A stretch of 64,000 nt of DNA, from positions 496,001 to 560,000 of the forward strand of contig QPGO01000019.1 in NCBI GenBank assembly GCA_008632985.1, in the 5' to 3' direction. Both the position numbers and the translations under genes were made by a program. Under the pieces are notes generated by a model. That model was not told the origin of the DNA. It searched no databases and saw only the letters and a program-made list of their open reading frames with translations. Source of the stretch: Psammoneis japonica. Lineage: Eukaryota. Below are positions 12,805-60,210 of the stretch, piece after piece. Position 1 is the first letter of the stretch, and every line of letters begins with the position of its first letter.

Positions 12805-13154
12805 TGGCGTGACATCGTCGCATTCGTTGACAGAAACAGTTCAGATAATGATATAATTAATTGTGCCAGAGACGCCCCACACCATCAGGGATTATTTGTG
12901 TTTTAATTTTGGCCGTGTCATTCCTAACGAAACTGCGCTACTAGGGCAACATGGACACGTGGCGTGACCACACCATTGACGGCTTCGCTGCCTGGGTTCT
13001 GTGCTGCCGCTCTGCCTCCCGACGCTTGGCTAAACAGACCATCACCTCCAATCATGACCATGATGACTCTCTCTCTCTCTGCCCCATCCTCCAGATGCTA
13101 AGAGCACGTCGACAGAACTATAGAAATCTCAACAAAACGTGAAACTATCAAGAT

Positions 13155-13264
13155 TGTGAGAGGGTCCTCAAGCGGACCTTCTTGTGCTCTGCCAAAGACT
13201 CTAGAATGTCAAAGACATCATCCCAAAGTCACACTTTGAGCAAGGTGTGATGATGTCATCAACA
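13155..13264 (-). repeat. Candidate short 3' LTR of the minus-strand copia
   Basis: On the minus strand a short purine tract (GGAGG) is followed by TGTTG...CTCACA, directly after the truncated RT. No partner LTR was found in the window. Confidence 0.3.
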
Positions 13265-16200
13265 CCTCCAAAAGAAGACATCAACACATCCCAGCTGCAT
13301 CATCCAGCACAGTGCTCCAACCAGCTGTTGGCTGTGAGCCACATCTGCTGGAATCAATTCATTGCTTGCATCCACTTCAGGATGACATGAGCTGCTGAGT
13401 GGAGTGGGAGCCTTGGCTGGCAACTTCATGTCCTTGGAAGACAGGCAGGTTTCAACATTCTTGACTGCCACCTGCACATGCTGAGACAAACTGAACCCCC
13501 ACACCTTAACTCCATTCTTGAACTCCACACATTGCAAGCAGGTGCCAAGATGAAAACTGGGCAGTCCAATTGATGACTCCTTCCAGGGAAAGCACTTGCC
13601 ATTTTCCTTCCTGAGAATGTTCTCTGCATCATTGAAGCTACAGAGCACATTGTCAGTGTGCAACAACACATGCTCCCAGCATTCAGTTCCATCTATCTTG
13701 AGGAACTCACACATCCACATGTCTGGATCAGCCTTGCATGGCTTGAATCCAAGGTGTGACATGAATGCTTGCAGGTGATTCCAAAAATCACGTTCTGTTG
13801 ACTTGCCACCATGCAATGCACAACAAACAAGAGCACGCTTGCCAACATTCTCCAATCTCAGGGCCACAAATGAGTCAATGTTTCTGAAAAGATGGTGCTT
13901 GGAGATGGGCATTCTGCATGTCAGCTGCCATGACATCAACATCATTCAGTGCAGTGCCTCAGGGCAATGTTCAAAGAGTGATCCCAGACAGGAAAAAGGG
14001 CACAGCAACTTCCTCACATCCTTCCTTGCAGCTTCTTTGAGCAATCCAATGTAGAGTTTAGCCCAGGTTGATCATGGCACACCCTCTTCAAGCAGTTGCA
14101 GGCTTGCTCTGACAGAGTGCAGGAACTGACAGATCTTGCCAGACTTGTGAGCTGAGCTGCCTTGCAAATGATTGAGTTGAGAGCTCCTGTCTCTTTCAAG
14201 AACATCTTGAGGGCTTGAGGAATCTCCAATCAAGCCAACATCAGAATGGCACAAACAAAATCCTTGTTTGTCACAAACAGTTGCATGCATGAGCATCCTC
14301 TCATGGACTTGCTGGCTTTCTTGCTCACAAAGAAAGTGTCCATGAAGAAATGCTGATGAGTTCTCTATGACAATGCAACATCCGGTCATTTGCAGAGCAG
14401 TTCTGAGATGATGCAGGGTCTTCTGATTGTGGCATGGCAATGGAGTTGCATTGTCAACAGTCTGCTTGGCATCCTTGACACCAATCCTCCAGATCTTGGA
14501 CAAAAACTCTGGCAACACACCCACCAACTTGGGTGCTGTTGTGCCACCAATGTCAAGACTTGAGTCTGACTCAAAACACAAATAACGTCATTGAGAGGAG
14601 CATCCTTGAACAATGTCAAAGAAAAATGCCAAAGTCAAAACATCATCACCCAAGTCTGTGTGGCCCCCATGTTCTCCAATGGTCACAGAGGCAATTGATG
14701 CTGCAAAGATGCCAGCACCAAAATGATCCTGCAGAGACTCAGCAAGTGAGACAAGATCAAGAGCAGCAGAAATGTCCAAGATCACAACATGGGAGTCATC
14801 AGCTTCACGCGCAGCCCTCAGACATCTGCTCAAGTCATCATGAGCCTCAATCCAATCAATGGCAGACTGGGGTTGCAGTCAATGGCACATTTTCCTTGAT
14901 TTCATTTCTGGAGACACAAGAGCATGATCATCTGCAGTTGGTTCTGGCCCACGCACTTGAATCTTAAGAATGTTGTCAACAATGACCCCGGTTGCGGTCC
15001 ATTGCCAGGATGTGCAAGGCATTGTGCAGGACCAGTGGGTGCATTTTCAATGAGCATGGACAATCATGTGTCATGTGCAAGCAATCTGTCAATTGTCTTG
15101 ACATTCTTTCATTGACTTGCACTCCGGATTGAAGGGACTGACTTGTGCTGTGCATCCTGTGCCACTCAGAACACAGCATTTTTTGCCAACAACAACCACA
15201 TTGGCATGGGAATCAAGTTAAGAACATGTCTCAATCACTGCACCAGTCTCTTCATTTGTGTCCATTGTGGCATTGGATGCTGCACAGCAAGACTTGAATT
15301 TTAAAGCAGATGAGTTGGAAATCAGCGACCACAACACACATGCACAAACAGAACACATTGTCTCCCTCAAGCAAAGAGACACTGGAACAGAGTGCCATCC
15401 CTTCATTTCATTTCTGTTTCCCAGCACACCACAAGATCAACTGCAGCATGACTGGGGGAGGCTTGAACTGCACTGAGGCAGCCTGAGCCTGTTGCAGTGG
15501 TGGAGGTGGCAGCAGTGGAGGAGGGGGAGCAGAGGGTGCAGTGGAAGATGCAGCTTGAACAAGAGAGAGAGCAAGCATGCACCTGCTTTGGCATCCTCTG
15601 ATGCTGTCACAGCTTGCTCTTCCTTTTCTGTTTGAAAAGCTGGCTCAGAGGCGACGGCTTCTGAAATCATCTTCTTGATCTGCGCTTCTGTGACCCTTTT
15701 GCTGCCAGTTTGTCCTTCTTGCCTTTCTTTGCAGTCTTTGTAGAGCTGTCTGTCTCCTGCCATTCCTTGAGCTTGACCTTCTCATCAGCCTCCAGCTTGC
15801 AATGTTTGGTGTGAGTGTGGTGTTGCAGCTGAACATGGATCTTGCTGATGCCAGACTTGACAGTGCTGGAGTAAATTACATGAGGTTGCTCTGAGGCATG
15901 CTTCTTTGCCACAGGGTCATGGAGAAGAAGATGGGCAGTGGCTGCTTCAAAGTTGCTCTGTTTTCCATTTGGTGCAGTGTCATTGCAAATGAGAGCTTCT
16001 GACATTTCAGTTTTGCATCTGGCAGATGTGTGACCCAAGTGCATTTATTTGGGAGAGCTGATGGGTGACATGCTCAGCACGTTGCTGCATTGAGATGAAT
16101 GCATTCCAGTGTTGAGCAATGAATCAGTCCAGAGAGAAATTTGATTGGGCTTTCCACTTGTCAGTGCAGATGAGCTCCTCCTGCTTCTTGAGTTCAGTGG

Positions 16201-16700
16201 CTCACTTGTCCTCACCAGTGCAGCACTGTGCCATCAGAGCAACCCATGCTTCACATCCATCTTCCCTGTGCTGGAATGGCTTGATCAAAGCTGCACAGGA
16301 GGGAACACGAGCAGCTTCTTCCAGTGCATGACAAAGAGGGAAATCTTCATCATGGAAAAAAGCATGAGTGTGGCCAGGCCAAGCAATTGGCTCATCTTCA
16401 AGGGATCCGTGTTGCTCTGAAAAGGGCTGATTTGTGACCAGAGCATGTTGTGTGTTTTTGCCAGAGCTGTCTCTTCTTCTCAAGCAACACATGACAGTGG
16501 AGTTGTCCAAGCATCAATTGCACACTGCAAGTGATCTTGGAAAGCCTTGGTCCACTTCATGTTGGCAGGGACTTGGAGATCCTTGGGACATCAGGGTCAT
16601 CCTTGTCATTCCAACCCTTGAGAGCCTTCCATGCTTCTTGAAAGTTCTTGAGAGTCCTTTGAGGAAACTCCTCCTCTTTGAGTTGCTTTGCTCCATCCCT
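13155..16700 (-). mobile_element. Degenerate Ty1/copia (CoDi-type) LTR retrotransposon: gag-protease-integrase-RT remnants
   Basis: Copia domain order on the minus strand. gag: NFQEAWKALK..DDPDVPRISK and IKPFQHREDGCEAWVAL. Protease: LDSHANVVVVG (~15185-15217). Integrase: FFMDTFF..CMQLFVTNKDFV..EIPQALKMFLKETGA (~14000-14350). RT: ALHGGKS..KADPDMWM..HVLLHTDNVL..SQHVQVAVKNVE (13280-13830). Many stops, frameshifts and internal deletions. The 5' boundary is approximate. Confidence 0.9.
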
Positions 16701-19700
16701 GCCCCAAGCACTCTGGTCCTGTGCTCCCACTCCCTGCCCTGCCCTCACAACTCAGTGTGCCTCTTGCTCTTTCACAAGATGGCTCCATTTGTTTTTTGCA
16801 CAATTCCTTCCATGCCCACCCCCCCATGAACAATCTCTCTCATCTTCTTGGAAGTTGCTGTGAATGAAACCACCTGCAAGGTCTGTTGTCTGTGCAATGG
16901 GTCCCCTTCCTGGAACTCTGCACAGTGCTCTCTGCCTCTCACTGCTCCCATCTCCAAGGCAATGCTCTCTCCCTGATCTCAAGAACAACTCAGCTCCATT
17001 TGCTGACTCTCTGTCAATCTCCTCAAATCCCGTGCTCTCCATTTTTGCTCTGCCCCAGCTGGCACACCTTCTCTTTCAAATTTCTCCCAAACTTTGTCCT
17101 CACCTCCACCATCCACCCCATTGTCAGCTCAGCCCCTTTTTGATGCCAGCTGCTTTCTCACCCTTCACATAAATGCCTCAGACCTTTCCAAGCTGTGTTC
17201 AGTGCAGGTGCCACTCTTCATCAAATCACCTGTGCCCCAGTTGTGTTTTTCTTTGCTGTTGCCTTTGCTGCTGATCTCCTCCCTTCTAGCCAACTGCAGT
17301 GTCAGAGTGGACTTTCTAGCACCCATGCTGTCCACACCAATGTAAAATGTGTGCTGCGTCTCCCAGGCACCATTCTGTCCATCAAGGCTGTGGCTCTTCT
17401 TGACCTCACCAACTTTTCAACAAAGTTTTCCATGATGCCTGTCACCACACACTGCCCTCCTCCAACTCCTGCTGACCCCCTCTTCTTTCCTTCTTTGACC
17501 TTGTCCATCAACAACCCAGCCTTTATGTCAGGCTGTGATTGCTGGTTTTAGTGGTGCTCCTTTCTTCAACATGAAGGCTTTGCTCAAAGCTGATCTCTTT
17601 GTGCCCTGCCTTTTCCAGCCTTGTCCTCTCAATCAAGTTCTTGCCTGCTCTCTCAACTGAGATCCACACCATTGGTGTCTCCCACCCCACTCCAAGTGCA
17701 CTGCCTCTTCTCATCTTGATGACATGCATGCTTCTCTTCACTCACTCAGCCATCCCCTGGCTCCTGTCTCAGGGCCTCCCCTTGGCATCTGCACCCTCAA
17801 CCTACCAAGCTTCTTGCCTCCATCTCTGGCTCCTGCTCTTCTTTCTTCTTGGCCCCTGGCAATGCTGCTGATCTTGCTGCTGCACTTTGTTTGTCAACTC
17901 CTTGGCTGATCCCACTGTTCACTCCCCAAAATTGCTGTTGGCACTTGCTTCCTTGGCCAAACCATTGGCTCATCTCTGACTTTGCTTCCAATTTCCTCAC
18001 CACCAAAGCTGCCTTCTTTGCCTTGCCACTCATCTCTGTGACAAACAAAAACCAAAGAAATCTCTTAAACAAACATCCCAGCAACACTTTGCAATTGCAG
18101 CATGTTGTTTGTTCTGTGTTCAACAACACGACATGTTGATGTGTCAGAAAGGTGATTGGGTGATGCACTCAAGCAAATGGACAAGTGACAAAAGCAAGGC
18201 TGAAAGTCTCAGTCATGATTGTCAAATGTCACTTGGTGTGGTGCTTGATCAAGTTCATTGCAACTGCAAGCTCATGCACATTTGAACTTTTTCACACTTG
18301 GTGCTGCTGCACACCTCCTTGTTTCTGCCAATGCATGCTTCAACTTCCAACCCTTTGTTTCAACCCCCGACCTCTTCTGTTGGGCTTGCCTTCTGCAGGT
18401 GCACTTGTCAGGCACTTCCTCCATTTCCTTTTCCATCTGAATGTGAGACTTCATTGCATCTCCCAACTGTTTTGCAAAATGTTTGTTAGAAACAGAAATT
18501 GCTTCATGATTGCAAACACGCATTTGATGCTTCGCACAGCAAACAAGCTAATTTTTGCAAAACAGTTTGACAGAAAAGTCTTTGCCAACTGCAAATGCTG
18601 TCTTTTGGTCATTTTTGCAGCCTTCTTCTTTTGTTCCACCACCTCCTCCAAATCTGCTCAAGGCCAATTTTTGCACCTTTCCAGTTCCCATCCTTCTGCT
18701 TCAGCTTGTCAAACTTTTTTACAACCTTCTTGCCCAAGCAAACACAGCTGGAGACAACTCAACATCCTCTGCTTCAGCTTCTCTCATCACTCAGCCACTC
18801 CCCAATCTCAGGCTTCTCAACTGACTTTGGCTTCACCCTCTGATCATCAAGCTGCTTGTCAGTCTTCCCTGTGTTGCCACCCCGCAGCTGCCACTGCTTG
18901 AGCCTCTCTCCCATGACCACCAGTCTGTCTGCACTGCTGGTGGCCCTGCCTCTTTGCTGCACTGCTCCTTTCCTCTTTCTTGATTCATCATTGGAGTGGA
19001 TTTAGCATGTGGGTGTGATCTATGTCTTCTTTGAGAAGAAAAGAATGTTGCCTGCTTTTCTTGCCACCCCCCCCCCAGCATGTCTTGATGAATGACTGGG
19101 GTGCCAAGTTTGTCGAAAGCCGCGCACCTGTCCAGACACTCTGCCAGCCAAGTTAGACTGACAAAATGTTTTAAAATCAATCCATCTCTCCTGAATCAGT
19201 TGACTCTCACCTGAATGAGAGTGGCACCAAAACCCATCACATTGTGGGCTCCCAGAGTCTCTCGCATTTTTGCAAAAGTGTTTTTCAGAGCAACGGCAAT
19301 TTGGCAAAATTGCTGCATGATCTGATGGTGCCTTGTGCCCAGAAATGGTTGGCATTGCTGGGATGCCTGTTTGCCAGATGTTTTCTTGTGGGTTGCTTTT
19401 CTCTTGAGATTGCTCACACGTGCTGCTTTGGTGTGTGGAAGCATGGCACAATGCTGTGGTGTGGGTTCAGAGGCAAATGGATGTGGAGCCCAGCACAATG
19501 GACAGGATTGGTGGCATGGCATGGCATCTGAGTGGATGGAATCTTTGCAGGCAATGACAGAAATGGTGCTGGTGCTTGCAGCAGAGCTGTGACTCTGGCA
19601 GAATCGGCGGAGATGTTTGTGCTGGCTGAAGCGCCAGCCACAGAGATGCACGCCATCATTTTTGAGTGGAGTCATTTGGTGGAATTGGGAATTGGGGTGG

Positions 19701-19850
19701 GACTGTGTTATAGATCAAAATGGCATTGGCATTTCATCTCATCCCCACATCAAAATTCAGTCCAAACGAACCACAATTCTCAAAAACAGAGCAAACAAGA
19801 CCTGCATTTTTTCTGCATGCGCGTGTGCCCAAAAATGCGAGCTGCCAGGC
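16700..19850. other. TpA/CpG-depleted degenerate block containing unidentified decayed coding sequence (K/E/Q-rich, coiled-coil-like remnants on the minus strand)
   Basis: Same dinucleotide signature as the adjacent copia. Fragments such as MEEVVEQKKKAAKMTKRQ and HIQMEKEMEEV; no family recognised. Confidence 0.55.
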
Positions 19851-19959
19851 ATGCCAAAACAGCACGCGACAGAATGCGCGAAACCCCGTCAATCCCGCAG
19901 AAGAAATTTAAGTGTCGAACAATACGAAGCTGTCAACAATGATGCAAGCAGCGCAAACA

Positions 19960-40940: not shown

Positions 40941-43900
40941 GCTATTATTGTACTGTTGGATCCAGAATCTGTCAGAACTGTCTTACGATGTATCCATCAC
41001 CGATAAACCGAATGCGTGCCGTAACGAGAACTCTGAACAGTCAAAATAAGTCAATGACGAGGCTGAAGGGTGAGAAACAGTCTCGGAGCTTGATGATTCG
41101 CTGTAGTAGTGCAGCAGATTGTTTAGATCAGGCGTGCAAGAAAAAGTGATGTTGGTACCGGTATTGGAAAGTGCTTTCGCATCAATCAACAGAAAACGCA
41201 GATGCTCGTGATGTGTGGAGATTCAAAATGACAGATGTTTTGTGGGTGACCCACACCACTCGCAAGTCCCTTGACCTCACAATCAACAAAACAGCTGTTT
41301 CCTTCAACAAAACGAGAAAACAGGTGGCGGTTTTAACACGAATGACCGCACTCCGAGTCCGAAACAGCGAAATAAATCGCATACTCGGAAAACGAGAAGC
41401 ACGTGACGCATGACGTGTCTCTGACCAGCTGGCGAGTGCCACCGACACGACAGGAAAAAACGAAGAAAACATCAACAACCGTCGAGTCCAAAACACGCGT
41501 CTCTCACGATGAACACAAATTATTGTCATGCACAAATAACATACCTCTGTGTGTGTGATGAGTGCGCTTGTCAAAGTGATGCAATCTGCAACAGCAATAA
41601 GAGGAGAGCTTAGAGCTTGTAGATTGTGGTTCTTTTGTGTGGGTCGGGTCGTGAGTTGATTTATGGGCAGATGGCGATTGTTGAAGTGGCGCAGGAGTTC
41701 TGCTTATCATAGTACGCAAAAAATCGTATGTAGAATCTACGTGATTTTCGGTATGTTCATTCTGTTGAGAAGCAGTGACGTAAGCATTGCGAAATAAATA
41801 TAAAATATACATAATCGCATAAGTAAGTCGCAGAAGCAGCATGATGTGGCTTTGTCAGTGCAAGATTCAGCGTTGCAATCGTGAGGGCAACTCACCCATG
41901 CCTCAGAGGCTCGCGAGTTCCCTCATCTCAGTTTAGCTCCAAACGTCCACGCTGGAAGGATGACACTGGTCTGTCCCTGTGCCGATGCTAAAATCGACAC
42001 TCATGGTCCTGCTCCAATGGCACAAAAGCAGAGAAAAACACTCAGTGCTGTCGACTCGGCTGAAGACATCACCCGGTGTGCACGAGCTGGCTGTGCAATG
42101 CCTTGATGAGAAGATCAACTTGGTGCCAGCTGCAGCATGATTCAAGTTCTGCTTGCTGATTTTGTTGAAATTCATCCACGAAACTCAGCTCTGCATTTTT
42201 CGCACATGTGTGTTCACAAAACTGCACAAAATTTCCCTTTTCGGCACACCTTTGTGCCCGCACATGAATTGTCGCCAAAACAAAATGTTGGAGAGAGCCA
42301 CTGTGCAGTGCATCAGCACAAGTGCCTTGCACAACCTCTTTTTGATGGATTGCCTGTCACACACTGCAGGTGCCGGCGCACCTGCTGTGCGGCCCTTCTC
42401 CTGCTGCTTTGCTTTTGTGCTGACTTCAGGAAGTCTTGGCTGCACCACATGGTTGGCGTGAGAAAATCACATGATGTCATGCCACTGCAGCACTCTTCTT
42501 CTTTCTTGACATTGGCGCAAGTGTCAATGTGATGACTCGCTGTTGCTCTTCTGAGAAAGCTTTCCTCTTTGCCACAAATGCAAAAGACAAGGAGAGGCTT
42601 GACTCTCTCCTCAAAAAGGCAGAAAGCTTTTCCACATCCGGTGCACTGCTGAAAGTTTTTGTCAAGAACAAAATTGCAGGAGAAGAGACAGAGATTGAGG
42701 TTGACATTTGCAATCCTCACGTTGGGTGCAGCATGAACAGCCCCGATGATCGCAAATGTGAAAGCAACTTCTTCAGGAGGAGTTGTCATCAGAGAAAAGG
42801 AGGCATGGAAAGGCTCCACTTGTCCAGCGAGTTCAATTCCAACACTCCACTAGAAGGCCATCAGACAGTGGTGGAGCATGTCACCAAGGCTTTCAATGCA
42901 TCTGGTGGCTGGTGGTGGCATCATTGCCACTGGCAGCTTTTCAGCCAAATTGTTGGATGTTGTCTTGAGATGCAAGAACCGCCACAGGATTGGCAAGACA
43001 AAGGACAATGATGGAAGGGAAGAAGAAGGGTCCAGCCCCTTGGCAAAGAAAATGACAATGGCAAGGCCACCAGCTGATGACGACACATGTGACTGGAGAA
43101 GCCAACTGCATTTTGAGCCATCGGAAACAAACACACTTGTTGGTGGATGGCTCTTTTTCAAGAACGGTGCTGGCAATTTCAAAAAGATGTGCAAGAGCAC
43201 ACCAGCAAGAAATGGTCAGAAGAGCCACCCCCCACCTTGATGAAAAACAAGCTCAAAACAGTCAATGATGACACAGATGTCAATTTGGGCTCCCAGTTGA
43301 TGGCGATGACATTCCAGCAGCACACTGGCCTTGCCATCATTGCACCAGGATGTTGAAGAACTGCCACCCCCCTCTGTTGGCCACGTCACATGGAACAATG
43401 TCGCTGACAGAGCAAGTTGTTGCCAAACATGTCAGCAACAGCAGTGCATCTGTTTTGTGCTTGATTGTTTCCATGTGTGTGTCTTGGACTGCACCCCGCC
43501 AAAGCCACTGCACTCGGGCAATTTCTGGTGCTGGAATGCAAAGAATCAAAGCCGTCATTCACAAAGCACCATCAACATCTCATCCACAAATGCACAATTG
43601 TCGCAACCAGAAAATGTGTGTGTGGGCGGTGAGTGAAAGTGACTTTGTGAAAACATTGAGAGCATGAGAACAGCAGACCAATGAAGTTCTGCAGCAAACT
43701 TGCTTGGTCACAGAGCATCAGGGATGAGCTCAACAGGGATCACAGTGGCAACAATGGCGAAGATGATGTTGAGAACATGCTGGCAGAACTTGGCAGAGGC
43801 ACCTTTGTCACAGTTCTTGTCACTGGAGCCTTCAAGATGGCCACACGCACCACTGGTTGCTGTGCCAGTTGCATCATGGTGTGCCCTTTCTGTCTGTGGC

Positions 43901-44510
43901 ACAAGATGACAAAGAACTGCTTTGGCCGACCATTGGCTGATGGTCTGCAGCAAGCCCAAGAGGCAAGGTCATTGAGACAGGGACATTCTGCAAGGACGAA
44001 ATGAGGAATTCCTTGAAGTCCTCCTTCACAATGCATCTGTGATTCAAAACAAAAACAGAAAATGCTTTCAAAGAGAACAGTGACCTGAATTTTTTTGACA
44101 CAATGAGAAAGGAAAAGAACAAACAACACAACAATGTGCCAAACAAAAATCACAGCCACTGCAAGAACACATCCAAATGAGAAAATGGCAACATCATCAT
44201 GTCCAGCACCCTTTGCAGCAGAACAATGTGACTTGTCAAAATTGCACACTGGGGGCAGGGACACACGGACAGGTGGTGACACAGTGGCTCTCGTGATTGC
44301 ATGCTGGTCACAATCATGTTGTGTCCCCAGCTTCACGATTTTTCTCTTATTTCATTGCTCATTGCTGCAACTGACATTTGGAGCTGGGTTCCAGCAGAGA
44401 ACCAGGAAGGCCATTTTGCATTGTGGAGTGCTGCTTTGCAGCCCTGAAGAAATGAAGACTGTTTGGGACACACTGAATGTGAGTCCATCCAAAATCAAGC
44501 ATGAGAATGA

Positions 44511-44755
44511 TGACAGGATTTGAACAAGATTTTAGTTCATCACACACAATTGTGTGTGCTCTCAGCTCCACTCGCATCACGCGATGTAGTTTGCTTTTGA
44601 GCCACATGGCTCACAAGAACAATGACAGCAGCACCAACATCATGACACCAGTCTTTTGGCTCCTGCAACGGTCTCTGCACAGAGACTCATCTGCTGTTTA
44701 GACAGCAGTGAGGAGATGTTGTTTTCTTCCACCCAGTCATCTTCAACTTCTGTCA
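44511..44755 (+). repeat. 5' LTR (245 bp)
   Basis: TG...CA termini; aligns end to end with 48592-48835. Confidence 0.93.
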
Positions 44756-47700
44756 GATTGACAGTCTGCTCATCTTCATCCATTGAGCGTTCATCATTGT
44801 CATCAAGAAAAATTTTGACAACGCACACCGTTGGTGGTGGAAGCACACACCTGCCTTCTCACTGCTGGATGTTGGATTGAATCTGCACATTTGGACTTGT
44901 CCAACACCTTGTGTCGTTGGACACATTTGTTCAACGGATGTTTGTTTGGTCAGGAATTCCCAAACTCTTGGACATCCAAGATTCCGGATTCCCTGCAGCA
45001 GATTCTACCCTGGTTGGCAGACAGACAAATCCATCCGCTCGCGTTCACGCGCACACGACACAAACCCTTGACTCTGGCCCTGCTTCGTGCATGCCAAGTC
45101 TACGCCTCTTATCTGCGCCGGATTGCTGGTCTTCTACAGTCCCACAAGGTCCACAAGGACAACTGTGAGAGGAAGCAGTTCGTGATTGCAGCCTGCATTG
45201 GGGCAAGGGTGCATTTCCCACGTTTTTTCATCCATCCACAGCGCCAAATTTGGCCGCCTGATCGGGTTGTCCAACCGACACAAAATGAGAACGGTTCGGA
45301 GGTCTTGTCCACCTCCAGCTGGCTTGTCAGCGGGGGTTTTTAACCCATTGCTCCGCTCTCAGGCAACCCAAGGCGTCACCAGCTGCGGGTTTGGACATGC
45401 CGGCACAACTCTGCGGACCGGATGGGAAGCTTGGCACTTGACTGCAAACGGGATGTCACAGCCTGGTGGCTTCTGACTCATGAGATGGTCTCCAAGACTT
45501 CAAATCAAGATTCAAGTCAAGTTTCAAGTCATTTCAAGTTCACCCTCGACTCCATCCAGCCCCAACACCCACCCAGTTGCAACATGGTTCTCACCAGGCA
45601 GCAACAAATCGATGGCCTTGAGCACATTCTAGGCACTGTTCTGGATCAAGCCGCAGACAGTCCATTGCACAATGCCCTCAACATTGATGGAACTGACTCG
45701 CACCAGGATCTCTTCACTTTTACTCCGACGCAACTGGATGCCCTGTTTCACAATGACGGCGCCAATCAGATGCCCTTGCCGCATGGTTACAAAGCACAGA
45801 CAGCTGCGCTGATTTGCCTGCACATGGTGAAAGCGCGCAGCGGTGCCAATGTTGGCAATGACCCTCACTTGTTCACACATGCTGAGTTCACTGACTGTCA
45901 TCTTAGCCCTGAGCACGCAGCATCCCTTTCCATGGGTGCAGCACCATCTGCTCCCACTCCTGGCTTGTTGCCACCCAAACCATGTGATCCCACGTGTGAC
46001 TTTAAACAAGGCATCAAACGTGACCCCCTCACCTTTGCAACTCTCAAGTCTGACAAACAGTGGCACACATGGCACACCTCCATCATCGCACAGGCCCGCT
46101 CCCAAGATGTCGACCACATGCTCGATCCAACGTACAAGCCCTCCACAGCTGAGGACAAGGCCCTGTTTGATGAACAACAGAAATGCATGTTCGTCACATT
46201 CAAATGCACCTTGCAGAACAACAAAGGCAAGGCACTTGTTTGTGAACATGTTGGCTCCTCTGATGCCCAAGCAGTGCATCGTGACCTGTCCAAGTGTGCC
46301 CTTGCATCTGCTCGCGCATCCCTGGAGTCCTTGACTCTTCTCACGCATCTCACCACTGCTCGCCTTGGTGATGGCACCTGGAAAGATCCACCCATGCCTT
46401 CATGCTTCACTGGCAGGACCAGCTTTGCAAGTGTGAAGCTCTTGTTCTGAGTGCAGACCACTTCTCTGCTGGCCAGAAATGCGCCATGGTTGAGAACGCC
46501 GTTCATCCTGTCAAAGAACTTCGTTTGGTGAAGAATCAAGCCGATCAGTTTCGCGCGCAGAATGGCAGAGGCCTCTTGTGCGAACAGTGCTGTGGGCTCC
46601 CACTTTCAGCAGTGGCACAGCACGACAGCACGTTCACCCCCAAGATGGCTCCACCCATCCCTCACCTTGTCATCTACAAACATGACCTGGCACCCAACAA
46701 CCATGATGATGATGCATTCTTCAACATTGACAGTGACGTTGACATCATTCAGGCTTGTGCTGCTCAAACCTGCAGCTCTTTTCTCATCAGGGAACAGTGG
46801 CACCACATTTTGCCAGACCACCAGTGCATTTGGGGCAGCCCACCGCAGTCCACCAAGGCCATCATCCTTGGATTGCGCAACCCCTGTTCCGGCAACTGCC
46901 ACGAGTTGGAAGGTGTCAGCCTCCATGAGGACCTCCATCTTGGAAGTGATGGCGACATTGATTTGTGTGTCAACACTCATGATCTTGCCTTGACCGCTGC
47001 ACCACCCACTGATGCACATGACAGGATGGACAACAACCTCATCCTGGCACATCTCATGAAGTGCAAGCCTCTGCTGCCCAGCAATCTGCAGCATCTTCTC
47101 TTGCCTGACAAACTGCTCCTACGCTTTCAATGGCGGGAACCCGTGCACTGCCACCTTGACTGTTCTGACTGGCCGTCTGAATCCTGCAAGTTGCATGGTC
47201 ACTTCGTTGGCATTGCCGAGCATGTCAGTCATCAGATGACATTCAAGATCCTCTCTGATGACACTCAGAATGTTCCCTGTTGCTCGAACATGCATTCCGC
47301 CCACAATCCGTCTGCCCCTGACCTGCGTCTTGACCCTCCTGACAAGGAATCAGCTGAACCTGTCATTAAATCCCGACATGACCCCAACTGATTCAATGGA
47401 TTCACCCAATGGGGAGGTGATCAGGATGCCCAAAATGCCGGTCGTTGCCCCCGAGGATGTCATTGGACGCACCTTCCTTGTGAAGCCACAAGAGGACAGA
47501 CAACACCACAGAGCTTGTGTCGTCAAAGCCGTTGAGGACCATGACTGGAAAATTGGAGACAATCCCAAACTGGTCAAGTTCATTTGCTCCATCAACAATG
47601 ATGAGTGCGAGGAAGTCCCAGCCTGCAACAACATCATGCACCACATCAATCAAGAAGACAAGGACACCACCCTCTGGAAGTTCCGATGCATCGCATCACA

Positions 47701-48591
47701 CAAAGGACCATTGTGACCCCACCATGATCCCTCTTGGAAAGGCTCAAGCTACAACGTCATGCTTGAATGGGAGAATGGGGAGATCACGTCCAAACCCCTT
47801 GCCATCATTGCCAAGGACAATCCCATCACCTGTGCCATCTGCGCACATGAGCACGGCCTCCTTGAAACTGAAAGATGGAGACATTTCCGCAAGACAGCTC
47901 TGCATCAGAAGAAGCCATTCTGCATGGCCAATTGAGCCAAGTTGCGCTCCTTTCATGCTGTGCCACAATGCAAGCATGAGCATGAAGTGCCCCGGGGCCA
48001 CAAGCATGCCTTGGCCCTTGATGAGCACAATGGCAAGCACAAGTGGGGAGATGCAACAGACCTTGAGATGACTCAGCTGGGTGAGTGCCATGTTCTCTAC
48101 AACTGTGGACACTGCAAGGACTCCAGTGCCCAAGCAGGACACAAGAAGATTGGGGTGCATCTCATCTGTGACATCAAACATGACGGACGGAACAAGATGC
48201 GACTTGTTGCTGATGGACACCTCACAGAGGCACCTGTTGACAGTCTGCGCATCACTTCACGTCACCTTGGCGTCCCCATTCATGAAACATGTCACATGTT
48301 TGGGGACAACAAGTTGGTTGTGGATGGTGCTGCCATCCCACACTCCAAGTTACACAAGCAACACACCACCCTCTCATTCCATCGTGCACGTGAGGCAATT
48401 GCCTCCGGTTTCCTTGAGTTTCATTTCATTGAAGGCTCCCGCAACCCAGCTGACATCCTCAGCAAGCATTGGGGTTGCTCTCAAGTCTGGAACCTCCTTC
48501 ATCCTAAAATGTTTTGGAGCTTCAATCCCAAGGCTTTCAACCAATCTGACTTTGAATCTGTCACTGTTGACCCCTCAAGCAAACTGGGGAG

Positions 48592-48835
48592 TGACAGGAT
48601 TTGAACAAGATTTTAGTTTGTCACACACAATTGTGTGCGCTCTTGGTTCTGCATGCGTCACCGATGCAGTTTGCTTTCAAGCCACATGGCTCACAAGAAT
48701 GACAACAGCAGTGCCAATGTCACGACACCAGTCTTTCGGCTCCTGTGATGGTCTCTGCATGGAGACTCATCTGCCATTTAGACAGCAGTGAGGAGTTGTT
48801 GTTTTCTTCCACCCAGTCATCTTCAATTTCTGTCA
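48592..48835 (+). repeat. 3' LTR (244 bp)
   Basis: Follows the purine tract, has TG...CA termini and is followed by the TSD. Confidence 0.93.
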
Positions 48836-50712
48836 AATGAGGCAGCCATGGGTCAGGGAAAGGGCTCAACTGGGTGGGCTGCTTGTTCCTGTGCTCCCAT
48901 TTTGGTTGTTGAGTGGAAGGGCTTTGACAGTTTGGCAGCTGCAGAGGGAAACCGTGACTGAAACCAGCAACTCGTCAACTTCAATTTGACCACCAGGTTT
49001 GAAATGGATCTAGATTCTTTTTTGAGCAAGGAGCGTGCAATGGCCACCATTGCTTTGTTCCTGAGCAAGCTCTCCATTCTATGCTGCAATCTTGTGGATG
49101 GCATCTGTTTTCCTCAGAGAAATTCTGAGCTGACCGCAAAGCCTGACATTGTGGCTGTGTGAGCAAGGATGACACAAGACTTCATGTTGGGACTTCCGAA
49201 GATGACTGTCTCCATCCCCACAACCTGGCAAGAGGGTGCAAACTCAATGAGAAAATGCTCAGTTGATTCAATCATTGTGTGGGTTCCCTCTTGAAACCAT
49301 GCCAGATTAGAAACTCTGGTTTTTGAAGCAAATGATGATGTGAATGGCTTGAACAGCAGCGCCAAGGCTCACAACATCATTGTCAATCACTGGGAGGTCT
49401 CACAAGACTTTGATGCAGAGAAACAGCAAAAGCAAGAGCCACTCTCTGCACAATGGCCCATTGCAAAGAGAAAGATCTTTCATCTTGTTTGTCAAATGCA
49501 TGGTCACATGGTTGCTGATGAGTGCTGATGCGGAGTTTTTCACACTGGTGACAGGAGGTGGATCTTTTGCAGGCGGATGAGCAATGGTGCACTCTTGTTG
49601 TCTCAAGCACTGTTTGGTGGGATGAAACCTCTCCATCTGTCCTCTAAGCTGCAAAGACTCTCACTGGATTTGATGACCATTGTTTGGGAGCCACTGTTGG
49701 CATTCATCCTTGTTCATTGGCATCCAAAGCACCTGCCAAAAAAGAGCTGAAATCATCACCCAAACCTCCCCCGATGCCCCCAAGCTGAAAGGACGACCAT
49801 GGTGGCAGGGAGCCAACAGGGAGAGGGAAAGACAACAAGACAAATGACACTCTAAATCTGGCAGCAACCCTGTTGTCCTGGGAGTGCGATGCATTTGACA
49901 AGACAGACAAAGTTCTGCTGCTGATGATGCCAAAGTGTCCTCATGTCTTGGCAAAAATGATGCAACAGAACCCGAGCTTGTGCCATGTTGCCCAGGAAAT
50001 GGCACACAAAGCAGAGTTTTACAAAGGGTTGCAGGGTTGGAAGGATGCAGAACAAGTCCTTCCTGGGTTTCACGGTCACAACACTCACTTGGTGGCTGTG
50101 GCCGTTGAGCTGCTTTGAGCTTGAGTCGGATGATTTTGATGACATTGCCATCAAAAACGTGTCAGTGGCACCAAAGCATCCAGCAGCACATGCAGTTGAG
50201 TTAGAGAAGTCTTTGCTTCTTCATTGACTGTGAGCCATCTTCATCCGCAAATCAAAGAATGGACAAGAAGCAGCAAGTGTTCGTGATTTGCGATCGCGAG
50301 TCACGTGCAGCAGGTCAGAGTGTTCTTGCTCGACACATCAAATGCGCGTGCATGCACCATGTTCAGTTGCCTGTGTGCTTTGTTTGCTCGTGAGTGTTGC
50401 ACATGATGCTGCGATCATGTAGAATGCACAGCGTTGCACATGAAATTGACACCTTTTAGAAGTGGTGGACATGGCATTGTGAATTGCACGTTCGGTCATG
50501 AATGTGGTCCAATGCACCAAAACTCCTCGAGCAGAAAAACGCCAAATTAAAAGCACCCATGCAATTTTGCCCACGTGTTCTCAGTTTTCACTTTGCTGTT
50601 GCAGCTCAGCCAGCAGAGGCCTGCAGTGCTTTGCTTCTCGTGCGGCCGCATTGACTGTCTGCCAGTGCCATGCTTTCTCAAACTTGCTTGTCTTGCAGGT
50701 TGTTGATGCACC

Positions 50713-52270
50713 ATGGGCCGCATCACTGTCTTTTCTCTTGACTCATGTCCACACTGCAAGTGAGCTGAGGGTGCTTGGAGTGCAAGAAAGATCCCCTTTG
50801 CGGAAATCAATCTCTTGAGTCATCCTCAAAAACGAAATGACATGCTGTCCCTTGCAGATCGCCTCTTGGTGCCGCAGGTTTTCTGGAATGAACAACACAT
50901 TAGAGGTGCAGATGAAACGATTGCTCAATTGACAGGATGGGACAAGAACACTGAAAAGAGTGCATTGCAACGACACAAAGATGAAATTGAATCCAAACCC
51001 AATCTGTTGGACCCGCATTTGGCCCTTCCCACAAGTCCGGCCGTCGTTGAAAAAGAACCTCCACCGTGTGACAATGAAAACAGCACGCTCTTTCAGATGG
51101 AACAATGGCTGCAGTTCTGGATGTCATGCAGAAACTCATCAAGGTGCTTCCACGCGACAACCTTTCCTGCAAGGTTCACATGTGCAAGGACTGTTTTTCA
51201 TTGGAGCCAAGGGAGTTTCCATGCTCATGGAGCATTTTGAACGGATTGCCACTCGTGATGAGGCTGTTGTGTTTGGATGACAACTGCAAGATGCCAAACT
51301 GCTCCATCATGTTTGTGAAGAACACAAATTCAAAGACAAAACATTGCTGTTGACTGCAGTGTTTTCATCAACCTGACGTTGTCAGTTCCCATCGTGTTTG
51401 GACCAAACGAGTCAATCCAAATGCCATGGCATTGCTCAAGCGATTGAAAAAGTTGTTGAGCAAGGTGGAGTCATCCATCACGGACAAAAAAGGTCCAGTG
51501 GACTGCATTGGTGCCCACGAGAGTGAACATTGCAATGTGTTTGAAGAAGCCGTCTGCAAACTGCAAGGAGTGGACATGGGAAAAATGAATGAGGAGGAGA
51601 GGCTCATCTTTGGAATGAACTTGTACAATCTTATGATCAAGTGCGTGCTCACAAAGGTTGGCATGCCATCATCTAACTTGACACAAGCTTCCTTCTTTTC
51701 AGGTGTCAAACTCAACATTGGTGGGGACGTTTTGTCATTTTATGACTTGGAGAATGGAGTGCTTCGGTCAAACTCGAAACCACCCTGCAGTTTCAGCACA
51801 CCATTTTCGTCGTCCAACCCCCGATGACATCTTGCCTTGAGTCCAGTGGATTGTCGGATTCATTTTGCTCTCAATTGCGGCACCAAGAGTCACCCGCCCG
51901 TCAAGGACTTTGCTGTTGAAAGCATGGAAGAGGAGTTGAGAATTGCTGCTCTTTCGTTTTGCGAAGAGGACAAGAATGTCGCTCTTGATGAAGCCAAGAA
52001 TGAAATCAAGCTCACCATGATTGTGAATTGGCGCCAAAGCGATTTTGCGGAATCCAAGGAAAAACTGCCAGAGAGCTCATTGTAATTCTTGAGGGGCGAA
52101 AAAGCAGAAACATTGGAATGCATGACTCAATCGGGCATTCCAATCAAGGTCAAATTTCACCAACACGATTGGAGCACAAATGCAAGTCATTTGACGTCTA
52201 CGAGAGCAGCAAACTCAAGGCAAACGAGTTCAGTCTGACACCACTGTTGAGTTTTGACAGTTGCAGAGAC
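50713..52270 (+). pseudogene. Glutaredoxin-DEP-DUF547 gene, decayed
   Basis: Glutaredoxin with CPHC: MGRITVFSLDSCPHCK*..IPFAEINL..VPQVFWNEQHIRGAD. DEP-like: CKDCF..TRDEAVVFG. DUF547: FGMNLYNLMI..NIGG..SFYDLENGVLR..DCRIHFALNCG. TGA stops at 50761 and 51825 plus frameshifts. The 3' end is approximate. Confidence 0.88.
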
Positions 52271-55059
52271 CCAATGGAATGAACAGCACAATGCATCAAT
52301 CACCCATGCACTGTTTTTTCATTCAGCATAGCTTTTGAAATTCCGGCATCCATTTCTTGTTTCTCATTGCATTTCATTGCGTTCATTTGCCACTTTGTTT
52401 CAAGTGTCACAGACCTCACAATGTGCTCCAGTTGGACATTGTCACTGCAAGCAGCCAGCATCAATGGAACAAGAGACGACATTTTGCTGCTGTGGGGCAG
52501 CATGAACATGGAAGCAGGGTCACTCACAAGGACTTGGTCAGATGTGGCACTCAGCTTTGTAACCTGAGACTGCCTCTTGTCAATTGTCCAGACTAAAAGC
52601 AGCAACACAAACTCACAGTGCAGAGTTTTGGGGCTGTGGGATCACCTGTGTTGGGCCGGCACCATGAGTGGATGCAAAGGCTTCAGCCTCTCATCAATTG
52701 CTCATGGTCACACAGCAATGGCACAAAAGCTCACAAGCATGTCCAGCAGTTGGAAGAAGAACAAACTTTGCCACAAACCAAGAGCGAACATCAGGTGGTG
52801 CTGCCCAGTGTGGCATCAGTGGACAGAGCGACATCAGCCTCTGCCAATCATCATGAAGCCGTGGAGCACAACATTTGTAGATGATTTTACCAAGGGAGGC
52901 ATTGCATCAGTTGTGGAATTGCTCAGTGGGGTCACCTGTGTGGCAGTCTTAAAGCAGAAGCAAAGGCTCACCAAATGCCCCCAAATGTTCCACCAACAAG
53001 TCCCTCCAAGATGCATTTGCTGTGCATGGTTGAGACAATTGGCAAGAAAACATCAAAGAGCCACACATTCATCTGTCAACCTGCTGTGACAGACAATGAT
53101 GGTGATGATGATGACAAAAAGTTTGCTGTTGCTGGCCTCCAGAAGTTGCTGCAACATCAACAATGTGGTGCTCAACATGTGGCCAAAGGCTGTGGCATGT
53201 TGTTCATGGAAGCAGAGGATGCAAACAAGTGCCAATTTTTCTGGCATTGATTGGTGAGACCCTGGCTGATGATGACCAGAGAATCGCTTGTCTGCCCTCC
53301 CAACAAAATTTGCAGAGCTGTTCACCCCTCATCCAATGCTGCCCATGGTGCACAACTGCAAAGCAAGTGCTCTCATGTGCTCACACATGATTGATGATTT
53401 GCCTTGCAACATTCTGGCTTTTCTTCACCTTGGCAGTCCACAAGGACAAACATGTGAAGTGAAGTGCAGGAAGATGCCCAGTGAGAAAAAATGTGCAAGG
53501 GACCGCCTCAAATTGGTCCTCAGGACCCTGCTCAATGATAAGGCCTGAGCTGTTGGAAGCAATGCTAAGACACTAGAGTGTGGCTGCCAGCTCTCTGCAA
53601 GTGCCAAATGGCAAAGAGCTCTCATGCCAAGAGCTCCACAATGTGCTCATCATGCAGGCCAGTGTGGCATGACTCTGCCTGATTTGCCTGAGTGTTGCAA
53701 TGGATGTGGGCATGCAGCAAACTCTCCTGGATTTTCCATTCAGTGTCAAAGCCACACTTCACAATGCCATCCACAACAACCTCCCCAACCAAGAGAGCCA
53801 AAATCTCTTCACATTGTTGGAAGTGGTGCCAGGCTCGCTCAAGTCACAAATGCAAAATGGAAAATTGCATGTGCAAAATCTCACCACTTGTTCATGTGAC
53901 CACTGCATTGGCCACACACAGAACCCTGTTTCTCTGTTTTTTGCTGGCAGCTGCTGCTGCACCCATGCACTCTTGCAAACACCATCTTTTTCGTCAGTGT
54001 TGCATTGTCAATCCAACAGCAGCACAGTGGCTGCAAGGGGTTGATGCTCATGATGTTTTTGCTGTGTCAGGCATCTGGCTGTCACATGTGACCAGACTCA
54101 ATCCTGGGCACTGGCGCTGGCAGAGGCTTGCTGCAAGACTTGCCACTCTGATGCAAGTGGGCCAGAAACTGAGGTGAAAAGAGGTCAGCATGTTTGCACT
54201 TTGCGCAGCTTCTTCCGTGCAAGAAGGCGCCTGCTCCAACTTCCGTTCTGTCTGTCAGCACCCAGTGCCCACTTGAGACTGTCTCAGTTTCAAAAGTTCT
54301 GTTTGAAGTGCTTGTGGCACAACCACATGTTTGAAAGTGCTCCAAGATGAAAAAAAAATGATGCATCAACACACACACAGAATGTCAGCAGCCAGCAAAG
54401 TGCACCCACTGCCTCTGAAAAAGTCCCATGTGCAGCCACAGCCCCCCACAGCTCACTCCTGAAGAATCAACAGGTGTCGCTCTTCTTGGGATGTGGCGCT
54501 CCTTCTTGACTCTAACAGGCTGGTGGGGTCTTCATTGCCCAGTGTGCCCACACTGCTCTTGTGGGACGAGTCTCTTTTGTTGTCAACCCACGCGTGCTTC
54601 TTGGCTGCTGAAAGCTGCAGTTTTCCAGACCCCCTTGAAAACCACAATCAGGAGGGAGGCTGTGGGGGTCACAGTGTCATCAAGTGTCAAACAGCTTGGG
54701 CAGAATTGTCTGTGTCCTCGAGACAGTGTGAGCTTGCCTGGCCCACAGCACATTTTGGGATGACGACCCCCACAAGACAGTTTGATGGAGGGATTGTTGC
54801 ATCCAAGTGTCAGAGTTGACATGCGAGCAGCTGCACTTGCATTTTTTACAACACATTTTGAAAGAAAGGTGAAAGGTGATGGAGATGATGGCATCGGCAT
54901 TCACACAACCTGGCCACCGTGTGGCTGCCAATGCAGAAGTGCGCAGGAGGAAAAGCCACACCAACCCTGCGAGGTTTCGATTTTTCGAAATGGACAGATG
55001 GTGCGTTTGCAGTGCAAGTAAATTCCGTGTTTTGGTTTCCTGTCAACTAACTCAGCGCT

Positions 55060-55302
55060 CTGGGTGTCGCCACTTAAAGCGAGAATCGCAGTGGCAGTCT
55101 GTCTGTACGACAGTTTCTACATGTGCTTTGCACTGTCGTCCGTCCCTACCGTACGGTACCACCTCCCGCCCGAGACAATTGGAGTCGGGTTGGTCGGCGC
55201 GAGCGGGAGGTGGCAGGGACGGACGAAAGTATAAAATATGCGTAGAAATCATCGTACAGACAGACCGCCACTGCGAATTTCCTTGCATGTGGCGAGACCC
55301 AG
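55060..55302. repeat. Foldback/MITE-like long imperfect inverted repeat (arms ~55060-55169 and 55203-55302)
   Basis: Left arm tcgcagtggcagtctgtctgtacga...tcgtccgtccct..ccacctcccgc is the reverse complement of gcgggaggtgg.agggacggacga...tcgtacagacagaccgccactgcga. Confidence 0.85.
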
Positions 55303-58849: not shown

Positions 58850-60070
58850 GGACCCGTTGAAGCTCGTGCGTGCGTTGAACGTGCTGCAGATTGTTACAAC
58901 ATGAGTTCGTTGCCGCCTCTCGTTTTCCTCCCTCATTCTTCCGAAGAATGAAGGAAAACAGAGACGACGTTGTAGACAGTCAATTCGCTATTGTCGTCGT
59001 TGCGAAGGACACCTTCGCCGTTTTCTTTCGATCGCAGGAAGACTTGTCTGAGAAGCACATCAGAACAGTCTCCAAGCAACGTCGTGTCCACGATGATGGT
59101 TTGTTTGTCTCAAACTCGTGGACTCTTGGCTCTCGGCCATCTGCAGCATGGGGCTTGCAGATGAGTCTCAGGGTTGGGAACTTCCAATGTTTCAGCTCAT
59201 GCTCCCACCAGTGGTGTGTTTCTTGTTCTTTCATCAAAGTTGAGCCGACTGGGTGCCGCATTTGCACCACACCACAACAGCGACCGCAGAACAGCCCAAA
59301 TCTCAACTTGATGCATCTCTGTTTGTTGAAGCCAACAATGGGCCAACAAGAGGGAAAAAGTGACCCAACTCTCCAGCAATGAGTTTGAGGAAGCTTCTGG
59401 AAAACAAAGCAAGTTTGGGACGATGTCCTCTTGGGAATGTTGGCACGGGTTCCTGGCACTGAGAGAAAGGAGAGCAAGTTTTACATTCGCACATGGCATG
59501 ACTTGTTGCACACTCTTGGTCCCATCCCTCTAAGATTGCACAAATCTTTGCCGCTTGTGTGTTGCACAAGCAAAATTGAGCATGAACTTTCTGCTCAAAT
59601 GATGTGCCGCCCGATGCAAATTGTGTCTTTCTGCCCAGATCTGCTCTTCCGTGGTTCTTTGAGCATTTCTCCACCCTTGGTGCTCCTTGTGGTGGCATCA
59701 CCCTCAACCTTTAAAAAACTGGGATTGTCATCTCCATCACCAGCACCAGCAGCCCCATCCCCACTCGTCTTCCTCCATCTCAGGCTGGCCCTTTTCCACT
59801 GAATTGATTGAGAAAAAGCACACAGTGCGCCACCACCAAGATGATGGTGGTGGCTGGAGTCATGCGGCAGCAGTGACGGACTCCCCCTTCTGCACCCCTT
59901 TCTTCTTGCCAGCAAAGAACCATCTCATCAAGCACGCCTCCATGCTGTTTTTGTTGTGCCAGCACACGCATCAGATGGATGAATTGTTTGTGATTTTGGA
60001 AAAAAGGACTTTTTACTCTGACGAAAAAAGTTCAAATTTCAAAAAATGACACCAATTTGCGTTGTGACGT
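58850..60070. other. TpA-depleted degenerate patch with unidentified decayed coding sequence
   Basis: Few TA dinucleotides, CpG only partly lost, and overlapping Cys/His-rich ORFs. Confidence 0.6.
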
Positions 60071-60210
60071 CATGAATGAACTCACAAATGAACCAAAAAG
60101 ACGAAAAAGAAAGCGCGCCAAACCATCACACTGATAAGACACTGCAACATCAACACGTACGGTACGCGACACCAGCACACAGCACAGCACAAATCCATCG
60201 CATCCACACC

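Follow-up and report, generated by a model that had tools for sequence, protein, structure and literature searches.

What might erase nearly every TpA step from kilobases of chromosomal DNA and leave the G+C content where it was? The window analysed here, a 64,000-nucleotide (64-kb) stretch of the Psammoneis japonica genome (contig QPGO01000019.1, positions 496,001 to 560,000 of the forward strand), holds four domains, delimited to within tens of bases, in which such an erasure can be followed. In window coordinates, and with no strand assigned, they are as follows, survival being the density of TpA or CpG relative to the density outside the domains.

41830..55050, main hypermutated domain: hardly any TpA, fewer CpG and an excess of TpG and CpA
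13150..19900, second hypermutated domain: survival 0.125 for TpA and 0.10 for CpG (over 13200-19800)
1..1760, third hypermutated domain: 6 TpA and 20 CpG, cut by the window edge
58990..60014, a small patch of 1 kb bearing this signature: survival 0.075 for TpA and 0.52 for CpG

The main domain fills the gap between an expressed minus-strand gene (39001-41213) and an RPE65-like gene (55779-56894). A run of seven N at 97-103 lies inside the domain at the window start.

The dinucleotide signature and its support in reads

Across 41850-55050 (13,201 bp) there are 57 TpA, compared with 847 ± 21 in 200 mononucleotide shuffles (minimum 795), and 285 CpG, compared with 800 ± 21 (minimum 730); the longest stretch free of TpA is 1,497 bp (42851-44348). 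When the domains are pooled (104-1700, 13200-19800, 41950-55000 and 59000-60000, 22.3 kb) and set against the rest of the window (40.6 kb), 95 TpA inside stand against 1575 outside (observed/expected ratio, o/e, 0.07 versus 0.56) and 360 CpG against 2222 (0.27 versus 0.97), and the o/e of CpA and TpG is 1.72 and 1.79 inside, compared with 1.17 and 1.21 outside. The loss of TA (3.45% of dinucleotides) and the loss of CG (3.86%) together equal the gain in TG and CA (7.1%). TpA and CpG are converted to the same products, and therefore G+C stays flat, at ~0.48 both inside and outside the domains. Sliding windows of 1 kb that lie wholly within domains have TpA o/e of 0.00-0.19, CpG of 0.04-0.70 and TpG/CpA of 1.6-2.0, whereas elsewhere TpA is mostly 0.4-0.8, CpG about 1.0 and TpG/CpA 1.0-1.4. 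Counts, shuffles and sliding windows therefore bear out the preliminary description of this DNA, which had reported kilobase-scale domains with almost no TA, few CG and abundant TG and CA, and had proposed that G+C balance is kept; its hand count for 16081-17160 (0 TpA and 3 CpG) is exact.

At the edges of the main domain, TpA is dense up to 41824, where it ends abruptly, and resumes at about 55019-55106. CpG thins gradually at that left edge. The right edge of the second domain has the opposite pattern: CpG is normal from about 19820, and TpA is sparse until about 20150-20400, into an open reading frame (ORF) at 19912-20643, so that the TpA-poor zone reaches about 0.5 kb past the CpG-poor zone.

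Unusual composition of this kind raises the question of an artefact of sequencing, base-calling or assembly, such as modified bases misread in long reads. Run X1, a DNA run of unrecorded platform that is perhaps the assembly's own sample, serves here as read support and not as an independent sample. It contains 68% of the sampled words of the main domain, and in the single-copy parts of that domain its contigs have a word depth of 53-81, compared with 58 in the flanking gene. The X1 contigs reproduce the TpA-free sequence across 8,010 bp of single-copy domain with 30 letter differences (0-13 per piece of 469-2,723 bp; agreement at least 99%). Because X1 contigs cover the domain at flank depth and agree to at least 99%, a sequencing artefact is unlikely; the preliminary description had allowed that raw reads might fail to support these bases, and the X1 contigs carry them, with the independence of X1 not proven. 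The differences inside the domain, which could be cited in favour of an artefact together with single-base indels, are mostly window TG or CA where the contig has CG (12 listed), and a few involve TA. They fit heterozygosity or residual long-read error at methylated CpG and leave the main signal unaffected, and they are an indirect hint of 5-methylcytosine on the remaining CpG of the domain. Misreading, moreover, cannot yield CA in one long terminal repeat (LTR) and TG in its partner, nor can it change Tyr to His or Cys in a coding relic, as is found below. An artefact is scarcely credible as the source of the signature.

The single-base indels take the form of missing letters. The window is short of single bases relative to the X1 contigs in 42790-44533, 48818-50092 and 52349-55050 (for example behind 43650, 44042, 44346 and 44424), with 5-21 gap positions per piece, which looks like residual indel error of a long-read assembly. 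One X1 contig joins 44811, just inside the LTR element described below, to 55061, just outside the right domain edge, with 36 other letters between and a shorter side of 25 letters; it may represent another copy or a haplotype structure. A second run, X2, is RNA-like, as judged from a 91-base skip with intron-like ends in the flanking gene at 39001-41213. It gives almost no cover inside the domain, for which no RNA run is listed, and this absence is not used as evidence.

Domain contents and their state before mutation

Two of the domains contain sequence that can be compared with a less mutated relative or partner. All of the following features are on the plus strand.

44506..44510 (left) and 48836-48840 (right), target-site duplication AATGA (5 bp), identical letters flanking both LTR ends
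44511..44755, 5' LTR, termini TGACAG...CTGTCA
44756..48591, internal region of the LTR element, a high-copy family with no recognisable gag or pol domain
48592..48835, 3' LTR of the same element, pairing with the 5' LTR
50713..52229, glutaredoxin-DEP-DUF547 relic, a full-length dead gene copy with one frameshift and four in-frame stops
19080..19335, partial mutated copy of an FSH1 serine-hydrolase gene, at the end of the second domain; the intact gene is at 21210-21881, 2 kb away

The two LTRs derive from one insertion, because the same 5-bp duplication flanks them. Over 244 positions they have 211 identical letters, 31 transitions and 2 transversions. Their identity is 98.8% in purine/pyrimidine coding, where transitions are hidden, and about 86% in four letters. 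When the alignment is extended slightly beyond the LTR ends, to 260 columns with 37 mismatches, 29 of the mismatched positions fall within pyrimidine-purine (YpR) dinucleotides, and the doublets comprise 11 CA-versus-TG, 5 CG/TG, 1 CG/CA and 1 TA/CA. A CA-versus-TG doublet is, as judged from the aligned letters, what remains of a single ancestral TA or CG that changed on one strand in one copy and on the other strand in the other. The LTRs were identical at integration and now carry opposite-strand products, and therefore the changes arose on integrated DNA, independently in each LTR.

This timing already contradicts the idea that the RNA or complementary DNA of a retroelement was edited by an ADAR- or APOBEC-type enzyme and then inserted: opposite-strand products occupy 11 sites in the LTRs of one insertion, the same signature lies on gene relics and unidentifiable DNA with common domain edges, a runs test (below) finds no strand coherence, and TAG contexts, the best for ADAR, are among the best survivors. 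That one block is an LTR retrotransposon, and that ADAR-type enzymes favour U before the edited A (Mettrop et al. 2026, bioRxiv 10.64898/2026.01.13.699255), would suit such editing before integration, to which we nevertheless attach almost no weight.

The element belongs to an abundant family. Word depth is 820-15,470 in bins wholly inside the internal region and reaches 56,608 in the LTR family, compared with about 60 in single-copy DNA, and less mutated LTR variants in the reads keep TA and CG where the window LTRs carry TG or CA. A comparison of the internal ORFs with Pfam gave nothing above cut-offs. For the ORF at 45344-46447, a homolog search returned one distant relative only (P0092, 36% identity) and a protein atlas unnamed clusters only, both useless for polarity, and a search of metagenomes for other LTR copies with a degenerate 26-letter pattern gave 0 matches. 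A very small run, X3 (contigs of 42-81 letters, 0.16 million letters in all), maps only to the two LTRs (44580-44694 and 48568-48774), and its loose ends are CG-rich, TA-containing variants; it could be a library of small-RNA type that samples copies of the LTR family with fewer mutations.

The glutaredoxin-DEP-DUF547 relic allows polarity to be read from protein conservation. Its frameshift lies near 51082 and its in-frame stops at 50761, 51351, 51825 (TGA) and 52083 (TAA). Among its top matches every named relative is a diatom, with a best identity of 62%. Aligned with 80 diatom-type homologs, and considering columns that are at least 75% conserved, the relic keeps 132 of 174 residues overall, and only one of eight Tyr, the others having become His (2), Cys (4) or Arg (1). 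Eight of 12 Arg are kept, the replacements being His, Cys, Gln and a TGA stop, as are 13 of 18 Phe, 23 of 25 Leu and 4 of 4 Trp; Ile has changed to Met twice and Asp to Asn three times. Changes that fit TA to TG or CA number 11 of the 42 (8 single steps, 2 Ile to Met if the codon was ATA, and 1 two-change Tyr to Arg), and changes that fit CG to TG or CA also number 11 as single steps, with 2 more in part. The preliminary description had spoken of Tyr and Arg losses in the recognisable proteins of the domains; this holds for the relic alone, and no other piece of the domain ORFs scanned against Pfam scored above cut-offs.

An expressed paralog of the relic, present in run X2, differs from it at 144 of about 1,590 letters and has TA at two of four listed sites (50653 and 51891) where the window has TG or CA. 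At 51891 the window reads CAC and the X1 and X2 contigs read TAC, so that an apparent Cys to His replacement, which would need a double change between CA and TG, is accounted for by a Tyr codon in the paralog of the same species. A His to Cys replacement at 51300, another double change between CA and TG, may have the same explanation. The CPHC motif of the glutaredoxin was considered as a Tyr to His change and rejected, CPHC being normal in diatom homologs.

The FSH1 pair shares 74% identity in four letters and 91.5% in purine/pyrimidine coding. Across 245 aligned columns of the duplicated stretch, the intact gene keeps 6 TA and 13 CG; 12 of the 13 CpG are TG (7) or CA (5) in the mutated copy, and three of the six TpA are CA or TG there. 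When the relic is compared with its homologs, the LTRs with each other and with their less mutated variants, and the relic with its expressed paralog, the ancestral sequences are seen to have had TpA. The preliminary description had conceded that its proposal would fall if the source elements were already TpA-free; the relic homologs, LTR variants and paralog carry TpA.

Could the domains instead be foreign DNA with a native composition of this kind? Many RNA viruses have little UpA and CpG and much UpG and CpA, and a virus or mobile element naturally poor in TpA and CpG might have brought its composition with it. The targets of TpA hypermutation in the chlorarachniophyte Bigelowiella natans are viral (10.64898/2026.01.13.699255). 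The relic, however, is a diatom-type host gene that has lost conserved Tyr and Arg codons, the less mutated LTR variants in reads have TA and CG, the LTR doublets require change in place, and no viral domain occurs in about 190 scanned domain frames. On these sequence comparisons, native composition is already contradicted for the three polarisable blocks and would be left only for the unidentified blocks; as a general account it has virtually no probability.

The remaining three blocks of the main domain are at single-copy depth and have no recognisable content. A Pfam scan of about 190 stop-to-stop open frames (at least 60-70 amino acids) from all domains found no transposon or viral protein domains, and only glutaredoxin and DUF547 pieces exceeded cut-offs; long ORFs are expected by chance in the domains, because only TGA stops remain. 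A search of the window for hidden repeats in purine/pyrimidine coding found that only the LTR pair, the FSH1 pair and a pair of MYND-gene paralogs exceed shuffle noise. Repeat-rich content, as first proposed, is thus shown for one LTR element and two gene-copy relics only; the remainder of the main domain is at single-copy depth and without recognisable content.

These contents bear on a homology-triggered process that senses duplicates, as repeat-induced point mutation (RIP) does, with RID-related DNMT4 perhaps as its agent. All identifiable contents of the domains are duplicates (the LTR family, the relic with its transcribed paralog, the FSH1 fragment), and diatom DNMT4, reported in 31 of 60 diatom species and given no known function in the part of the source drawn on here, groups with fungal RID (PMC9998398). 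Yet the partner copies are unmutated (the intact FSH1 gene; the expressed paralog with TA at two of four listed sites), the greater part of the domain has single-copy depth and, at the purine/pyrimidine level, no repeat within the window that exceeds shuffle noise, the giant-virus region of B. natans is single copy (10.64898/2026.01.13.699255), and a change of A:T to G:C is not explained by a homolog of a cytosine methyltransferase. Old repeats may have diverged beyond detection. A RIP-like trigger is weakened by these observations, and we consider it improbable.

Strand, rate and sequence context of the change

The order of TG and CA along the domains is random (runs test z = +0.47 and +0.48), and therefore there is no sign of processive single-strand editing. 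The proposal of a second, strand-symmetric T:A to C:G process at TpA, besides CpG decay, which hits both strands and ends at sharp domain edges, is upheld by the polarised comparisons.

The two losses differ in tempo. Over eight blocks, TpA survival is uniformly low, 4-14%, whereas for CpG it is anywhere between 10% and 57%. Measured as log-loss, TpA has decayed 3.0-3.9 times as far as CpG in the youngest blocks (the LTR element, the relic and the 1-kb patch). CpG level steps at the borders of inserted blocks, and TpA stays near zero across them. TpA is thus 86-96% lost in blocks where only 2 of 244 LTR positions differ by a transversion, an indirect hint of a high rate. CpG loss is possibly a separate, superimposed process, because it is graded and TpA loss is uniform, and we read the pattern as age-dependent decay of presumably methylated CpG, overlaid by a quicker process that is specific for TpA.

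Surviving TpA are not a random sample of contexts. With the TpA spectrum outside the domains as a stand-in for the ancestor, survivors compared with expectation number 2 of 249 for RTAY (a purine before and a pyrimidine after the TpA), 45 of 469 for mixed contexts and 48 of 145 for YTAR (chi-square 79, p = 7e-18), and the ranking of contexts is the same in all four domains. A model of independent strands, in which a site is fast if a purine precedes T or, equally, if a pyrimidine follows A, predicts 2.8% survival for RTAY, compared with 0.8% observed. CTAG is among the best-surviving TpA contexts, as are TAG contexts. Among surviving CpG, GCGC is enriched and TCGA depleted, and periodicity of surviving CpG, sought as a test for nucleosome-linker methylation, gave no signal. 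The trinucleotide mass balance is not clean enough to separate T to C from A to G.

A passive by-product of silent chromatin, with neither a deaminase nor a role in defence, is the alternative that these data accommodate best, although it too is unlikely. A base modification or a repair bias limited to heterochromatin would make TpA mispair, for example oxidation of thymine to 5-hydroxymethyluracil or 5-formyluracil, which can pair with G, or over-zealous correction of T:G mismatches. We know of no such modification in diatoms. Strand-random, site-by-site change at a self-complementary dinucleotide fits a mark on both strands, the domain edges, like the CpG decay that accompanies them, fit a chromatin state, and T could just as well be the target, in which case the preferred context becomes 5'-(A>G>C>T)-T-A. 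On the other side, near-complete loss at 3-4 times the pace of CpG decay in young blocks is much to ask of a side effect, and the TA loss driven by repair in Escherichia coli targets CTAG, which survives well here. In favour of the by-product, thymine hydroxylation that silences transposons exists in dinoflagellates (PMC11572971, PMC11071213). Against it, the process in B. natans was active in 11 of 15 lines only, a sign of regulation in the view of its authors (10.64898/2026.01.13.699255).

Two further features lie beside the domains. Tandem paralogs of a MYND zinc-finger gene (60076-61220 and 61832-63121; 67-74% DNA identity, with armadillo repeats detected in the downstream copy only) follow the 1-kb hypermutated patch, which lies just upstream of the first paralog. 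On the plus strand at 2250-12801, four consecutive very long open frames (1168, 813, 889 and 656 amino acids) have no Pfam match and may form one giant gene next to the second domain.

A probable TpA-directed process and its relation to known systems

We consider the domains to be probably the result of localized, DNA-level TpA hypermutation in silent intergenic DNA, of the kind described in B. natans, layered on decay of methyl-CpG. The domains would be silent junk DNA between genes, composed of an LTR retrotransposon, dead gene copies and unidentifiable sequence, in which TpA has been turned into TpG or CpA, i.e. A:T into G:C at TpA, after insertion and on double-stranded chromosomal DNA. 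The process acts site by site on a random strand, prefers RTAY over YTAR and stops within tens of bases at the edges, and slower, age-graded deamination of methylated CpG would remove CpG in the same domains with the same products. Most likely, the chemistry at TpA would be that an enzyme deaminates adenine to hypoxanthine in the context 5'-T-A-(T>C>G>A); this enzyme may be recruited by a silent chromatin state and not by sequence homology, and might serve in genome defence.

Several observations weigh against this interpretation. A single machinery might hit both TpA and CpG, and the G:C pairs of the B. natans regions are almost untouched, compared with a CpG o/e of 0.27 here. Of the 42 changes at conserved relic columns, 18 fit neither a TA nor a CG context; at 50902 the window has TA and the expressed paralog TG; and the FSH1 pair has 28 transitions outside CpG and TpA. 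Some of the non-fitting relic changes and FSH1 transitions must be ordinary divergence. Some of the YTAR survivors could be new TpA that arose from the plentiful TG and CA, and not sites that were protected. The Pfam scan detected no viral gene in the domains, in contrast to the B. natans targets. Finally, 79 metagenome loci around relic homologs (546 kb, 975 1-kb windows) contain no domain this strong by the criterion of TpA o/e below 0.1 with TG/CA above 1.6, although these contigs are gene-rich and a poor sample of breadth. As a separate observation, two of the loci (L017, 1-3000, and L025, 6500-9500) have TpA o/e of 0.10-0.30 and TG/CA of 1.4-1.7, which may reflect coding bias.

The domains are reminiscent of the products of fungal RIP, which is likewise an in-place, DNA-level transition hypermutation with a dinucleotide context, ruins repeated DNA and yields compositional domains with sharp bounds. 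Fungal RIP depends on RID and DIM-2, changes C:G to T:A mostly at CpA, creates TpA and AT-rich isochores, and mutates both copies of a duplication before meiosis. Here, in contrast, TpA is destroyed, G+C is unchanged and the partner copies (the intact FSH1 gene and the expressed paralog) are spared. Diatom DNMT4, a relative of RID, is a lead for the CpG part only. Decay of methylated CpG gives CpG to TpG or CpA, is strand-symmetric, graded with apparent block age and confined to silent DNA, all as in the domains, but it leaves TpA alone; DNMT5-dependent methylation of transposons has been described in diatoms (PMC9998398). APOBEC3 and ADAR provide another parallel, in deaminase-driven transition hypermutation against mobile or foreign nucleic acid and in the preference of adenine editors for a 5' T or U. 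They act, however, on single-stranded DNA or RNA and leave strand-coherent clusters, whereas the changes here are post-integration and random in strand. In E. coli, the bias of very-short-patch repair turns TA into CA or TG and shapes the scarcity of CTAG. That effect is specific to CTAG, which in the domains is among the best survivors. A mutation-accumulation study of Phaeodactylum found the usual GC to AT bias and, in the part of the paper considered here, mentions no TpA hot spot (PMC6604790). The literature searched yielded no reports of TpA loss in diatoms.

The closest relative is the TpA hypermutation of integrated giant-virus and virophage DNA in B. natans (10.64898/2026.01.13.699255). 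Of the 302 new single-nucleotide mutations in mutation-accumulation lines of that alga, 231 lay in two integrated viral regions, one of giant-virus origin (about 186 kb) and one of virophage origin (about 25 kb), and all but one of the mutations in these regions were A to G or T to C, those all on TpA (10.64898/2026.01.13.699255). The rate was about 6e-7 in the viral regions, compared with 3.5e-10 elsewhere, and the genome contains 124 TpA-poor clusters rich in CpA and TpG, in which reverse-transcriptase and DDE domains are over-represented among TpA-poor coding sequences (10.64898/2026.01.13.699255). The authors propose an ADAT2-like adenine deaminase, and the portion of the preprint drawn on here makes no mention of diatoms, CpG or wider context (10.64898/2026.01.13.699255). 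The preliminary description had claimed that no such process was on record; TpA-only hypermutation of A:T to G:C has in fact been measured in this organism (10.64898/2026.01.13.699255). Both cases convert TpA to TpG or CpA on either strand over kilobase-scale regions, against the usual GC to AT bias, and the long-term footprint in B. natans is, as here, TpA-poor DNA rich in CpA and TpG. The lineages differ, a diatom-type stramenopile here and a chlorarachniophyte there, as do the targets, which in B. natans are foreign, largely silent DNA and here are one LTR retrotransposon and two host-gene copies. The footprint is near saturation here, with a TpA o/e of 0.07, compared with 0.45 in the giant-virus region of B. 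natans, and the preference for RTAY over YTAR seen here is undiscussed for B. natans in what we draw on from the preprint.

We know of no process, before the 2026 preprint, that removes TpA from chromosomal DNA. B. natans offers the mutations caught as they arise and this window the end state in a diatom-type genome, in which about 90% of TpA has been erased over at least four domains, in place and after insertion. We suggest tentatively, and with more doubt than conviction, that diatoms and chlorarachniophytes share an undescribed enzyme system, a TpA-rewriting, silent-chromatin-recruited, G+C-neutral counterpart of RIP spread across the stramenopile, alveolate and rhizarian algae. In its simplest form this system would be a natural adenine deaminase that acts on double-stranded chromosomal DNA at the motif 5'-T-A-Y and would soon rewrite all TpA in newly silenced DNA. 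If the mechanism is common to both cases, it would be old or widespread among major marine algae, and it would bias the detection of transposons, pseudogenes and integrated viruses in these genomes and give rise to long false ORFs, because TAA and TAG stops vanish. Two distant lineages would then be available for finding the enzyme by genome comparison, and a natural adenine deaminase active on double-stranded DNA would, if it exists, be of interest to base-editing work. The RTAY over YTAR preference provides a wider motif that can be compared with the published de novo mutations of B. natans. Compared with that organism, what is new here is near-complete erasure, a retrotransposon and dead host genes as targets, CpG decay alongside and the preference for RTAY.

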